Part shown: in pieces, positions 3,629-63,613 of the stretch
How positions within the stretch are numbered: position 1 is the stretch's first letter
How the letters are laid out: each line of letters opens with the position of its first letter
From: Clostridia bacterium
GTDB taxonomy: Bacteria; Bacteroidota; Bacteroidia; Bacteroidales; 4484-276
NCBI GenBank assembly: GCA_009928785.1
Contig: SABY01000001.1
Location: 23,633 to 87,632, forward strand
Direction: 5' to 3'
Length of the DNA: 64,000 bases
Translations under genes and position numbers: made by a program
Notes under the pieces: model-generated
Told to the model about the DNA's origin: nothing
Seen by the model: only the letters and a program-made list of their open reading frames with translations
Database searches by the model: none

Positions 3629-3707
3629 AGTATAAAACCAAAACCCTCCGCGAATTCACACGAATTTGGCGAATTTTCATGATAAGGGAACTAGCGATAA
3701 TTCGTTT

Positions 3708-4090
3708 AATTGGCGGAAATTCGCGGACGGCTTGTTTATCCACGAATTCACCCGAATCAGTCGAATTCACACGAAAATTAAAAGACTGATTCCTTTTGAA
3801 GTTTCTATGTCAGCCTGATAGAAAGTCGCAGCAGGGGTCTGTTTTTTTATTTTTAAAATAATTAGCGGAAATTCGCGGACGGCTTGTTTATCCACGAATT
3901 CACGCGAATCAGGCGAATTCACACGAAAATTAAAAGACTGATTCCTTTTGACGTTTCTATGTCAGCCTGATAGAAAGTCGCGGCAGGGGTCTGTTTTTTT
4001 TATTTTTAAAATAATTAGCGAAAATTAGCTGAATTGGCGGAAATTCGCGGACGGCTTGTTTATCGAATTCACACGAAAATTAAAAGACAA
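3708..4090. repeat. Tandem repeat, 152-bp unit, about 2.4 copies (unit starts 3708, 3860, 4032)
   Basis: AAT(T/A)GCGGAAATTCGCGGACGG recurs at offsets of 152 and 172. The 172 offset reflects a 20-bp internal duplication. Each full unit has two GAATTCAC words, a hairpin TTTCTAT-N9-ATAGAAA (3802-3824 in copy 1) and a T-run. Confidence 0.85.
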
Positions 4091-12244: not shown

Positions 12245-12371
12245 AGTGTTAATTGTGAATATTTAATGCCTGCGAAAATATGGTTTTTTTTAATTCATAA
12301 ACATTGCATCCCTATTTTTTGATGAAAAGGATCGTGAAAAAATCATTGGGCACATCTAAATCGTCATTTCA

Positions 12372-12520
12372 AGACGCACGTCCCCCGCATGGGCGGGGCA
12401 GGCTGTGCGTCTCTACAATTGAAATCCCAAATCCCAAATCCCAAATCCCAAATCCCAAATCCCAAATCCCAAATCCAATTTCTTACTTCTAACTTCTATT
12501 CTCTTCCCTCTTAATTTCGT
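12372..12520. repeat. Composite intergenic element: nested GC hairpin, CAATTGAAATCC junction, (AAATCCC)x7 and an AT-rich tail
   Basis: Outer stem AGACGCAC/GTGCGTCT (12372-12379 / 12405-12412). Inner stem CCCCGC-ATGG-GCGGGG. Seven perfect heptads at 12422-12470 plus one imperfect. Tail TTCTTACTTCTAACTTCTATTCTCTTCCCTC. Confidence 0.9.
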
Positions 12521-19280: not shown

Positions 19281-19287
19281 AAAACAA

Positions 19288-19371
19288 GAAGTTAGAGGGG
19301 AGAAGTTAGAGGGGAGAAGTTAGAGGGGAGAAGTTAGAGGGGAGAAGTTAGAGGGGAGAAGTTAGAGGGGA
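19288..19371. repeat. Perfect tandem repeat (GAAGTTAGAGGGGA)x6, 14-bp unit
   Basis: Six identical units counted from 19288 to 19371, starting 8 bp after the stop at 19280. Confidence 0.95.
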
Positions 19372-19479
19372 GAGATGAATTTAGAATTTTAGCACCAAAG
19401 GAGCGTTATTCCGATCGATCCCGGCAGGGCGACAGCAGTAAAATAGTTAAAAAAATAATCAATTTATTGTCATAAAAAA

Positions 19480-22785: not shown

Positions 22786-24090
22786 ATGAGTTCTTTTGAA
22801 ATTTGCGGAGGCAAAAGGCTCAGTGGACAGATTACACCCCAGGGTGCCAAAAACGAGGCGCTTCAGGTGATTTGTGCTGTTTTACTCACGAGCCAACCTG
22901 TTACCATTAGCAACATTCCGGAGATACGTGATGTGATAAAGCTAATCGACCTGCTGAAGTTGCTTGGCGTGGTGGTGGAAAAAACCGACGAGTCAACCTG
23001 GCGCTTTACCGCCTCAGATATTCATCTCGATATTTTGCTTACGGATAAGTTTCGTAAAAAAAGTGCGGAGTTGCGCGGCAGTATCATGATTATCGGTCCG
23101 CTGCTTGCACGCTTCGGTAAGGCATTTATTCCGCAGCCTGGTGGCGACAAAATAGGCCGTCGTCGGCTCGACACGCACTTTATTGGGTTACAAAAGCTGG
23201 GTGCCAAATTCGATTATAACTTTCAGAAGAACTACTACAGCGTGGTAGCGGAGCGTCTGGAAGGTACCTACATGCTCCTCGACGAAGCCTCCGTTACCGG
23301 CACCGCCAACGTACTCATGGCTGCCACCCTGGCGCATGGCACCACCACCATTTTCAACGCCGCCTGCGAGCCTTATGTGGTGCAGCTCTGTAAAATGCTC
23401 AACAGCATGGGTGCCCGAATCGAAGGTATTGGCAGCAATCTGCTGATTGTACACGGTGTAGAAGTTTTATCCGGCTGCAGCCATAAGCTCTTGCCCGACA
23501 TGATCGAGGTGGGTAGTTTTATCGGGCTGGCAGCACTCACCCAATCCAACATAAAAATTACCGGCGTCAACCCGGCCGATCTGGGCATCATCCCCGACGT
23601 TTTTGGAAGGCTCGGCATCCGTATGCAACTCAATGCCGACAGCATCGAAATTCCCGAACAGGAGAGTTACGAGATCGAAACTTTTATGGATGGCTCCATC
23701 ATGACCATCTCTGATGCTCCGTGGCCCGGCTTTACTCCCGACCTGATTAGTATTGCGCTGGTGGTGGCCATACAAGCCAAAGGCAGCGTGTTGATCCATC
23801 AGAAAATGTTTGAAAGCCGTCTGTTTTTCGTTGACAAACTCATCGACATGGGCGCTCGTATTATTTTGTGCGACCCGCACCGCGCCACCGTTATTGGCCT
23901 CGCCCGGCAATACAAGCTGCGCGCTATCCGTATGAGTTCGCCCGACATACGTGCTGGTGTAGCCTTGCTGCTCAGTGCGCTATCGGCTGAAGGCAAAAGC
24001 ATCATCGACAACATTGAGCAGATCGACCGCGGCTACCAAAACATCGATGGACGCCTGCGTGCAATTGGCGCGGAAATTGAAAGAATTTAG
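22786..24090 (+). CDS. murA: UDP-N-acetylglucosamine 1-carboxyvinyltransferase
   Basis: Full-length MurA pattern (GAKNEALQVICA...). The active-site loop PGGDKIGRRRLDTH has Asp (codon GAC at 23146-23148) where E. coli has Cys115. Confidence 0.95.
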   Translation: MSSFEICGGKRLSGQITPQGAKNEALQVICAVLLTSQPVTISNIPEIRDVIKLIDLLKLLGVVVEKTDESTWRFTASDIHLDILLTDKFRKKSAELRGSIMIIGPLLARFGKAFIPQPGGDKIGRRRLDTHFIGLQKLGAKFDYNFQKNYYSVVAERLEGTYMLLDEASVTGTANVLMAATLAHGTTTIFNAACEPYVVQLCKMLNSMGARIEGIGSNLLIVHGVEVLSGCSHKLLPDMIEVGSFIGLAALTQSNIKITGVNPADLGIIPDVFGRLGIRMQLNADSIEIPEQESYEIETFMDGSIMTISDAPWPGFTPDLISIALVVAIQAKGSVLIHQKMFESRLFFVDKLIDMGARIILCDPHRATVIGLARQYKLRAIRMSSPDIRAGVALLLSALSAEGKSIIDNIEQIDRGYQNIDGRLRAIGAEIERI

Positions 24091-24231
24091 AAGTTAGATG
24101 TCAGAAGTTAGATGTTAGAAATTAGATTTAGGATTTTTAATTAGGAAGTAGAGACGCACAGCCTGCCCCGCCCATGCGGGGGACGTGCGTAAATAATTAC
24201 GAATGAATATTGAATTTTGAATTTTGAATTG
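24090..24231. repeat. Composite element: degenerate 14-mers (GAAGTTAGATGTNA), the same GC hairpin as at 12372 (inverted), and (TGAATTT)x~4
   Basis: 24148-24190 is a perfect reverse-complement match to 12374-12416 (43 nt). 14-mers at 24090-24131; heptads at 24204-24231. Confidence 0.9.
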
Positions 24232-27099: not shown

Positions 27100-27122
27100 A
27101 AGAGGAGTCATGTAGTGATGAA

Positions 27123-27275
27123 AGACCAAACCCTTCGGAGGACGTGTGTCTGGAAATGCAATTGAAATCCGAATACCGAATACCGAATACCGAATACTGA
27201 ATACCGAATACCGAATACCGAATAACGAATACCGAATAACGGATAACGAATAACGAATAACGGATAACGAATTTT
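27123..27275. repeat. Composite element: short hairpin region, CAATTGAAATCC junction and 15 heptads (GAATACC grading to GAATAAC/GGATAAC)
   Basis: AGACCAAACCCTTCGGAGGACGTGTGTCT at 27123-27151. The junction at 27159-27170 is identical to 12416-12427. Heptads counted from 27171 to 27275. Confidence 0.9.
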
Positions 27276-35194: not shown

Positions 35195-35281
35195 TGCAAT
35201 TATTTTGTGTGCAAAAATAGAAAAGCCACCCGCTATGGGTGGCTTTTGTTGAAAAATCGTTGCTCTTTTGTTAAGAGTTCA

Positions 35282-44946: not shown

Positions 44947-45083
44947 AAACAAACAAACACCGAACACCAAACAACAAACACCAAGCAACAAACTTGAGCG
45001 TAGCTGCCTGCCCCGACCCATCGGGGAAATCCCGAGAGCTTTGCGATTCGGGAAACAAACAACGAACAACAAACAACGAACAG
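44947..45083. repeat. Composite element: (CAAACAC/CAAACAA)x~7, two GC hairpins, then (AAACAAC/AACGAAC)x~4
   Basis: Hairpins CCCCGA-CCCA-TCGGGG (45011-45026) and CCCGA-N12-TCGGG (45031-45052). Heptad tracts at 44947-44993 and 45053-45083. Confidence 0.85.
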
Positions 45084-47303: not shown

Positions 47304-47689
47304 TAACCTTTCTATCTCCTCCTTCATCGGACCGTAGAAAGTTGCTACCCCCCCCACAGACTTTCGAGCGTCCGAAGGACCTCGAAACGTCAACAAACGA
47401 AACTAACCTTTCTATCTCCTCCTTCATCGGACCGTAGAAAGTTGCTACCCCCCCCACAGACTTTCGAGCGTCCGAAGAACCTCGAAACGTCAACGAACGA
47501 ACCTAACCTTTTCTATCTCCTCCTTCATCGGACGATAGAAAGTTGCTACCCCCCCACAGACTTTCGAGCGTCCGAAGGGACCTCGAAACGTCAAACAAAC
47601 AACAAACAACAAACAACAAACAACAAACAACGAACAACAAACAACGAACAACAAACAACAAACAACGAACAACGAACAACAAACAACGA
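47304..47689. repeat. Three tandem copies of an exactly 100-bp unit (starts 47304, 47404, 47504) running into ~14 heptads (AACAAAC/AACGAAC)
   Basis: Copies 1 and 2 differ at 3 positions. Each unit has hairpin A (CTTTCTA...TAGAAAG, 47308-47341), a C7-8 run and hairpin B (TTTCGAG-C-GTCC-GAA-GGAC-CTCGAAA, 47362-47387). The heptad tract spans about 47593-47689. Confidence 0.9.
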
Positions 47690-63444: not shown

Positions 63445-63613
63445 TATATCAGTTATTATTTATTAATCCGACTCATCTGGCTTTTCGGATTCGCCCCGTT
63501 TTTTTTATTGGTATCTGGATTCCAAAATTGATCTGAAATGGTATTTATGTTTTTATCATCGTTTACTTTTGGTGTATTAATTTTGAAAAGCTAAAACGAC
63601 TTATTGCAATACG

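Follow-up and report, generated by a model that had tools for sequence, protein, structure and literature searches.

A GTAG-tagged nested hairpin downstream of murA in an uncultured Bacteroidales genome, probably a repetitive extragenic palindrome

Results

Two identical nested hairpins in unrelated spacers

The window analysed here, 64,000 nucleotides of contig SABY01000001.1 (assembly GCA_009928785.1), carries a murA open reading frame (ORF; 22786-24090, EPSP_synthase fold family) whose TAG stop codon occupies positions 24088-24090. The spacer between murA and a redoxin gene holds a 43-nt palindromic core, GTAGAGACGCACAGCCTGCCCCGCCCATGCGGGGGACGTGCGT, at 24148-24190 on the forward strand (locus 4), and its exact reverse complement lies 12 kb apart at 12374-12416 (locus 1), between the divergently transcribed genes of a 236-aa protein and an ABC-F protein. 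A window-wide mismatch search confirmed this pair, which the first-pass annotation had described: there are two copies and no third at up to three mismatches, with none expected from shuffled sequences. According to folding predictions the 43-mer forms a nested hairpin (-20.7 to -28.6 kcal/mol, z of -2.1 to -4.5), in which a GTAG tag precedes an outer stem, (AG)ACGCAC/GTGCGT(CT), and a GC hairpin, CCCCGC-CCAT-GCGGGG, is nested in the loop of that stem (Table 1). We propose that the core is probably a singlet repetitive extragenic palindrome (REP) of the form GTAG-AGACGCAC...GTGCGTCT(-CTAC), the type that flanks genes of subclass 2.4 REP-associated tyrosine transposases (RAYT/TnpA_REP).

When the two loci are aligned in the same orientation, their identity ends exactly at the 3' end of GTGCGT. 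The outer stem of locus 4 is only 6 bp long because the 3' CT and tail of the family are absent there; locus 1 has the fuller unit, with an 8-bp stem and the tail, and therefore is not a copy of the present-day locus 4. At both window copies GTAG stands directly 5' of the AGACGCAC arm, as in GTAG-type REPs, and the 8-bp basal stem AGACGCAC/GTGCGTCT (62% GC) is found in locus 1 and in all relatives. Both copies are singlets without a partner within 100 nt, so that the doublet characteristic of REPINs (REP doublets forming hairpins) was not seen. A census of the window gave two intact copies, one decayed copy and one partial unit, all of them in spacers. The first-pass annotation had let the element begin at the murA stop codon and had not recognised a GTAG-tagged REP in it; what starts at the stop codon is a heptad array, and the palindromic unit begins 58 nt downstream.

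Match to catalogued GTAG repeats

The short form of the unit, GTAGAGACGCAC-GGCC-GTGCGTCTCTAC, occurs in supplementary file 2 of Quentin et al. 2018 (PMC6006769), where the 28-mer GTAGAGACGCACGGCCGTGCGTCTCTAC is listed as a REP flanking the subclass 2.4 RAYT gene ACL24330.1 (strain code CaggA01). Entries related to it are GTAGAGACGCAATGCATTGCGTCTCTAC, GTAGAGACGCGA....TCGCGTCTC and GTAGAGACGCAATTTATTGCGTCT (ChutA01); the codes with related REPs are CchlA01, CalsA01 and ChutA01, with AesuA01 more distant (PMC6006769). The same work reports RAYT subclasses 2.4 and 2.6 in Bacteroidetes, states that Cyanobacteria and Bacteroidetes are rich in subclass 2.4, whose REPs come in short and long versions, and gives an explicit REP descriptor. 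By this descriptor (PMC6006769; PMC3733652), GTAG or GTGG lies 0-2 nt 5' of a hairpin whose stem is fully paired over at least 7 bp (5-13 bp in PMC3733652) with a GC content of at least 50%, and whose loop has 2-5 nt or contains a second stem reached via a bulge of 1-3 nt. GTAG-type REPs should also be present as numerous scattered copies, largely extragenic, in a genome that encodes a cognate RAYT (Y1/HUH transposase), as a rule with the REP on its flanks. For GTAG-tagged repeats, Di Nocera et al. 2013 (PMC3733652) give stem lengths of 5-13 bp and loop lengths of 2-20 nt; within REP families, complex loops that are self-complementary occur alongside short ones. In their survey, GTAG repeats came from Proteobacteria, Cyanobacteria, Chloroflexi and PVC (Planctomycetes-Verrucomicrobia-Chlamydiae), and Bacteroidetes yielded CGTC-type repeats only.

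A literature search for the sequence string returned only unrelated primers from main texts; the match sits in a supplement, and the sequence is not in the supplementary tables of PMC3733652. A CGTC-tagged REP, the Bacteroidetes type, does not fit: its stems start with AT pairs and its tag is unpaired. From the strain codes and accession prefixes we take CaggA01 to be Chloroflexus aggregans, and CchlA01, CalsA01 and ChutA01 to be a Chlorobium, a Calothrix and Cytophaga hutchinsonii, respectively.

Short form in phage genomes

Scanning IMG/VR with GTAGAGACGCAC-N(4-30)-GTGCGTCT yielded 39 loci with 37 distinct 24-nt units. Their loops are mostly palindromic (26 of 37: GGCC in 18, GATC in 4, AATT in 3, also AGCT), further variants being CATG and TATA, and many of the units extend to the 28-mer named above. 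Two multi-copy contigs are real phages, as indicated by genes for a large terminase and a portal protein on one and for a major tail protein and an endolysin on the other. At least five copies lie on a single 15-kb phage contig, another contig (L041) carries a doublet of the form GTAG-hairpin-14 nt-hairpin-CTAC, and the units on phage contigs are placed in short spacers after co-directional genes. The 28-mer has no copy in GenBank phages or PLSDB plasmids. Matches of 41 nt in IMG/VR were judged to be chance or coding, about three being expected by chance.

Across 49 distinct short-form units, the two uppermost base pairs of the stem show covariation, with 4 and 6 double changes; overall, 16 cells have a double change, versus 3.6 in shuffles. 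Part of the invariance at the stem base is built in, because the search pattern fixed AGACGC/GCGTCT. The 5' GTAG is conserved in at least 90% of these units; the 3' CTAC is not.

Orthologous sites and loop variation

The murA site was compared on syntenic contigs found through MurA homologues of 99, 95, 94 and 93% identity, corresponding to 4-fold site divergences from the window of 0.055 for the 99% strain and 0.42-0.49, a level close to saturation, for the 93-95% lineages. A hairpin lies at the same spot after murA in every lineage compared; of the five lineages set against the window, four keep tag and outer stem, and in the fifth (L033) the copy is decayed. A similar exchange of forms is seen in the spacer between the SUI1 and DUF5063 genes, which holds a long form with loop CCTG in the 95% lineage, a short form with loop TGCT in the 94% lineages and a decayed copy in the window. 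At the locus 1 site, L037 (neighbour protein 83% identical) has GTAC-AGACGCAC-TGCC-GTGCGTCT-GTAC preceded by (GATTTAC)4, L026 retains the leader and GTAG without the stem, and in L033 the core is absent. As both the locus 1 and the murA site are occupied or carry remnants in relatives, both sites must be old. Tag and outer stem stay constant far beyond the neutral expectation, while the interior is exchanged among sites and lineages.

A pattern preserving the stems gave four single-strand matches in the genome collection, on four contigs of one Bacteroidales metagenome-assembled genome (MAG; AS10tlH2TH_145), and in metagenomes seven loci of the AS10tlH2TH_145 population plus one new locus. The full unit in those copies reads GTAG-AGACGCAC-AGCCTG-CCCCGC-NNNN-GCGGGG-GAC-GTGCGTCT(-CTAC). 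In the 95% lineage there are at least six distinct loci, five of them with the long form, and the genome and metagenome scans found this form in two related lineages only. Over seven independent long copies the loop shows 0.43 differences per site, compared with 0.00 in the inner arms and in the 5' outer arm; the loops are CCAT, CCTG, CCAA, CCCA, TCAA and CCCG. CCAT is common to both window copies, and all other long copies have different loops. Five of seven distinct loci lie 9-34 nt past a stop codon between co-directional genes, and in one copy (L021) the TAG of the tag is itself the stop codon. One copy is antisense to both neighbour genes, and both locus 1 and a partial unit at 45000 lie between divergent genes.

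In the Logan assemblies of ERR15804815/6 (L035 and L036, same strain) the short-read contigs break inside the core, starting CTGCCCCGCCCATG..., which is consistent with assembly collapse at the repeat and the adjacent heptad array. Such units are likely to be under-represented in metagenome assemblies.

How recently did the two window copies become identical? The first-pass annotation had offered recent mobility, gene conversion or strong selection, and had suggested looking for empty sites and target-site duplications. Its premise, an identity beyond chance, stands, and recent copying fits the shared CCAT loop; a recent arrival at locus 4 does not, with tag and outer stem already at the murA site in lineages that are 42-49% diverged at 4-fold sites. 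Neither site is cleanly empty in relatives, and no duplicated flanks were seen at the elements. Target-site duplication is not expected for the REP class. The terminal inverted repeats, target-site duplications and empty sites of miniature inverted-repeat transposable elements (MITEs) or insertion sequences were not found. The identity of the 43-mers fits the view that gene conversion or a RAYT recently copied the long interior within the genome, because only the window copies share a loop and both sites have been occupied since ancient times. Copies dating from the split of the 99% strain (L024) would be expected to show about 2.4 differences (P(0) ~0.09), which is not decisive; the copying is recent and not datable more closely. 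We also considered a donor for the locus 4 copy on the basis of its 3' flank (SUI1-type flank, CCCCAAC motif), but the similarities do not exceed those in shuffles.

Flanking heptad arrays

The array upstream of the locus 4 hairpin runs over the last murA codons and the TAG stop. The repeats themselves are as the first-pass annotation gave them, with three 14-mers at 24090-24131 and about four TGAATTT units at 24204-24230. Tandem Repeats Finder (TRF) reports period 14 x2.8 at 24089-24127, period 7 x6.4 from 24082 and period 7 x3.9 at 24204-24230. The further statement of the first-pass annotation that the two cores have different flanking repeats does not hold for the upstream side, where both share a leader, AGAAGTTAGA.GT.AGAAATT.GATTT.GGATTT, identical at 30 of 34 positions and extended at locus 1 by eight extra GGGATTT. 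We rejected the idea that leader heptads and core travel as one mobile unit: an array without any core, (AGAAGTTAGAGGGG)6 at 19287-19373, scores the same against the leader (46 against 48), and therefore the leader belongs to a heptad family of the genome and not to the core.

The array of 24082-24147 is not in the same spacer of relatives, where the REP lies 9-15 nt past the stop. In the murA spacer the arrays differ by lineage (TTACGATTGACGAA, (CGATTTCCGAATAA)n, TGAATTT) and the rest of the spacer is unalignable, and the CTAACTTCTAAC part of the locus 1 heptads is also found in L026. Rather than marking the ends of a mobile element, the flanking repeats form hypervariable heptad arrays that are different in every lineage. 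All four REP-type units of the window fall in the 8 of 41 spacers that have period-7 arrays (P ~7e-4, with the reservation that the arrays themselves lengthen spacers).

Arrays of period 7 (also 14, 21 and 28) were observed in spacers at 12.2, 17.8, 19.3, 24.1, 27.1, 41.9-42.8, 44.8-45.1 and 47.8-48.1 kb.

Other units and features of the window

Downstream of the decayed copy at the SUI1 site lies (CCGAATA)15, at 27169-27272. The stand-alone inner module at 45000-45026 differs from the inner stem of the core by a compensatory C:G to A:T change; it is flanked by (CAAACAC)n and (AACAAAC)n in a divergent spacer, with a gene start about 60 nt downstream.

A second GTAG-REP family, GTAG-CCCAGGCG-TTTA-CGCCTGGG, lies at 830-853, in a spacer (796-886) bounded by convergent genes. 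The 95% relative has it as two inverted units, about 115 nt from each other and with their tags pointing outward (L008 1585-1719 = L023 1866-2000); this doublet shows a compensatory G:C to A:T change and is REPIN-like. The window further contains large tandem repeats at 3707-4051 (152 nt x2.1) and 47304-47687 (100 nt x3, then (AACAAAC)13), each unit of which includes inverted repeats such as TTTCTAT...ATAGAAA and TTTCGAG...CTCGAAA, and a DUF805 RNA motif (RF03081) at 63462-63530 on the reverse strand (68.5 bits versus a gathering score of 51.1). Protein P0121 (11534-12244, reverse strand) gives the only exact protein match of the window, EOM83_00130, labelled 'MAG: Clostridia bacterium'. The bin is probably mislabelled, as all relatives are Bacteroidales.

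Table 1. Positions of the hairpin units, their parts and the adjoining arrays, and the forms found at the murA site and on phage contigs (L numbers are contig handles; REP naming follows the probable assignment)
Feature	Position or contig	Strand	Remark
Degenerate heptad/14-mer array	24082-24147	+	AGAATTT AGAAGTT AGATGTC AGAAGTT AGATGTT AGAAATT AGATTTA GGATTTT...
GTAG tag, 5' tetranucleotide of REP unit	24148-24151	+	
REP hairpin, long-loop form (locus 4, 3' of murA)	24152-24190	+	
Locus 4: outer arm ACGCAC (preceded by AG)	24154-24159	+	
Locus 4: bulge AGCCTG	24160-24165	+	
Locus 4: inner arm CCCCGC	24166-24171	+	
Locus 4: loop CCAT	24172-24175	+	
Locus 4: inner arm GCGGGG	24176-24181	+	
Locus 4: bulge GAC	24182-24184	+	
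Locus 4: outer arm GTGCGT	24185-24190	+	
TGAATTT heptad array 3' of locus 4 REP	24204-24231	+	Relatives have GAWTNAC-type heptads here
Locus 1 copy	12358-12416	-	GTAG 12416-12413; 8-bp outer stem AGACGCAC/GTGCGTCT; interior as in locus 4
Family 3' tail TGAAATGACGATTT of locus 1 copy	12371-12358	-	
Heptad arrays 5' of locus 1 copy	12422-12498	-	AGAAGTTAGAAGTAAG... then (GGGATTT)8
Decayed family copy 3' of SUI1 gene	27112-27157	+	GTAGTGATGAAAGAC...GGACGTGTGTCTGGAAAT
Inner module alone	45000-45026	+	GTAG-C-TGCCTG-CCCCGA-CCCA-TCGGGG
murA site, long form	window, L024		L024 with one stem-breaking G to A change
murA site, medium form	L026		GTAGAGACGCACCGCCCCGGCGGGGGAGATGCGTCT
murA site, short form	L029		GTAGAGACGCAC-GGTC-GTGCGTCT
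murA site, short form	L031		As L029, loop GGCC
murA site, decayed remnant	L033		
REP-bearing phage contigs	L077, L058 (IMGVR_UViG_3300027852_000244); L041 (IMGVR_UViG_3300044712_002664); ~30 other IMG/VR loci		

Discussion

On the proposed assignment the hairpin is a catalogued RAYT-associated REP type with a nested-hairpin, long-loop subfamily, rather than an element of a novel kind, and any annotation as a novel transposon, terminator family or RNA gene should be avoided. This extends GTAG REPs to uncultured Bacteroidales. Several points weigh against it. A scan for HUH and Y..NP motifs over 333 kb of host and 353 kb of phage DNA found no RAYT, a negative that carries no information on whole genomes, so that the putative cognate enzyme is suggested by the literature, through the identical REP beside ACL24330.1. 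Neither window copy is a doublet, the mobile unit under the REPIN model. The 6-bp stem of locus 4 is inside the 5-13 bp range of PMC3733652 and under the 7-bp descriptor, and the long form has a second 6-bp stem with bulges of 6 and 3 nt, versus 1-3 nt in the published descriptor. The 64 kb hold only two intact units, one decayed and one partial. Selection could likewise account for the two 43-mers staying identical, and the donor of either copy is not identifiable from the flanks. Finally, any role at the RNA level is a predicted one. As for the loop, the interior of the long form is inside the 'complex loop up to 20 nt' range of PMC3733652, and the orthologous short forms have 4-nt loops.

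How would such a family be maintained? We hypothesize that it spreads and is kept uniform by copying between copies within the genome. The route might be a cognate subclass 2.4 RAYT that cleaves at GTAG and transfers strands on single-stranded hairpin DNA, or alternatively plain gene conversion between dispersed copies. By either route two sites already holding a unit would have received the same long interior, at about the time when the 99% strain split off or shortly before. The flanking heptad arrays would be simple repeats prone to slippage, each lineage expanding and altering its arrays independently. Where the hairpin falls in a 3' untranslated region, as after murA, it probably acts as a 3' end barrier that would stabilise the upstream mRNA.

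Like Rho-independent terminators, the unit after murA is a GC-rich hairpin shortly past a stop codon. We nevertheless rejected an intrinsic terminator, because the hairpin comes without a T-run and the same sequence recurs at unrelated loci, also between divergent genes. The sequence next to the core, AAATAATTACG or TGAAATGACG, contains no T-run, and a terminator scan flags the core at neither locus. Ordinary hairpins with T-runs are found in the window near 35225, 51160 and 54785 (e.g. AAGGCCGGTTCCACTGTGGAACCGGCCTTTTTTT), and hence the organism uses ordinary intrinsic terminators. Rfam gave nothing at gathering score at the locus, the sub-threshold matches being at chance level (E 0.46-3.1, searched to E 10).

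Could the hairpin instead be kept by selection as a 3' cis-acting RNA element, such as a stabiliser, a processing site or a non-canonical terminator, without any recent copying? Its stable stems, the position of 5 of 7 distinct loci 9-34 nt past a stop codon with co-directional genes, the similar placement of phage copies and the persistence of the outer stem at the murA site despite 42-49% neutral divergence would all suit such a role. However, structural selection explains neither why unrelated loci, and even different phyla, have the same stem sequence nor the conserved unpaired GTAG, and no transcript end is expected between divergent genes, where locus 1 and the 45000 unit lie. One copy is antisense to both neighbours. 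The loop, variable in other copies, is identical in the window copies, a G to A change breaks the stem in the 99% strain, and a T-run is lacking. We therefore regard this as the less probable explanation, though the one with most to recommend it after the REP assignment, with which an RNA role is compatible as a secondary one.

Another possibility, which we consider doubtful, is that a separate mobile GC hairpin (xGCC-TGCCCCGN-loop-NCGGGG) inserted into the loops of resident REPs and hit the two window copies independently. The inner module standing alone at 45000-45026, with its compensatory stem change, points in this direction, as does the reading of the long form as the short form plus about 21 nt between the 5' arm and a GGCC-like loop, which would leave the residual loops GGAC, GGCC and GACC. 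The sites of the long interior also vary between lineages: in the window it sits at murA and locus 1, in the 95% lineage at SUI1 and elsewhere. Yet there is one stand-alone module only, no enzyme or target rule is known, the long form is found in two related lineages only, and complex loops beside short loops are ordinary in REP families (PMC3733652). Gene conversion between REPs gives the same pattern with fewer assumptions.

It is highly improbable that the palindrome is no REP at all but a double-stranded DNA operator for a dimeric protein, be it a regulator, a nucleoid protein or a phage-related factor. The palindromic short-form loops (26 of 37; GGCC, GATC, AATT, AGCT) do give full two-fold symmetry, and many copies lie in short phage spacers; but the 25-nt asymmetric interior of the window copies breaks this symmetry with the arms still kept, covariation at the stem top points to pairing and not to base-specific contacts, and the same 28-mers with palindromic loops are catalogued as RAYT-flanking REPs (PMC6006769). 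A simple segmental duplication, which the identical 43-mers 12 kb apart might suggest and which the first-pass annotation had tied to there being only two copies in paralogous flanks, can be practically dismissed: identity does not extend past the core, the two sets of flanking genes are unrelated, both sites are occupied in relatives and many further copies exist elsewhere.

For the GTAG-tagged REP, the persistence of the site in orthologous spacers of lineages diverged to species level while loop module and flanks are exchanged is direct evidence of concerted evolution of REP singlets. The coupling of REPs to heptad arrays, the lineage-specific rebuilding of these arrays and the high REP density on phage genomes are outside the textbook picture of REPs; the heptad-array coupling and the phage presence are the sole parts beyond what is described, and both associations are leads on how REPs spread and how heptamer arrays originate. 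One might speculate that hairpin processing, by RAYT nicking or replication stalling, gives rise to the heptad arrays and exchanges loop modules, and that phages carry this REP type from phylum to phylum. We hold this to be a long shot; if true, it would tie together the patchy distribution that subclass 2.4 RAYTs and heptamer arrays share in Cyanobacteria and Bacteroidetes.

Comparison with known systems

Heptanucleotide arrays have been described as long simple sequence repeats (Mrazek et al. 2007, via PMC4679880), with TAACTGA arrays in Beggiatoaceae, Cyanobacteria and some Bacteroidetes. The arrays of the window resemble these in their period of 7, their confinement to spacers and their strain-specific length and sequence, the spacers of relatives being shorter and without arrays. 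In contrast to the TAACTGA arrays, their units are of the GAAGTTA, GGGATTT, TGAATTT, CCGAATA and CGATTTA types, and clustering beside REP hairpins, as in this window, is an association not described in PMC4679880.

With the subclass 2.4 REPs of PMC6006769, the hairpin shares the tag, the outer stem, the location in spacers and the coexistence of short and long forms, and the orthologous copies have the same 4-nt loop types. It departs from them in the 25-nt interior of the window copies, with its 6-bp GC stem and bulges of 6 and 3 nt, in the lack of a RAYT seen beside any copy, in the abutting heptad arrays and in its uncultured Bacteroidales host. As in the GTAG super-family (PMC3733652), which includes the REP/BIME (bacterial interspersed mosaic element) sequences of E. 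coli and the REPs of Pseudomonas, the 5' GTAG is not needed for pairing. REPs of that survey likewise lie mostly within 20 bp past ORFs, between co-directional or convergent genes, and their GTAG sometimes provides the TAG stop.

The similarity to the REPINs and RAYTs of Pseudomonas (Bertels and Rainey 2011, PMC3116915; REPORTH, 10.1101/2024.10.14.618302) is one of repeat populations that evolve within a genome. Unlike REPINs, the window copies are singlets, doublets occurring only in phage contig L041 and in the second family (L008/L023), and the presence of the short form on phage genomes is at odds with strictly vertical inheritance. On the other hand, REPINs have been described as vertically inherited repeats that can be traced to orthologous extragenic spaces (10.1101/2024.10.14.618302), and the same holds for the murA, SUI1 and locus 1 sites described here.

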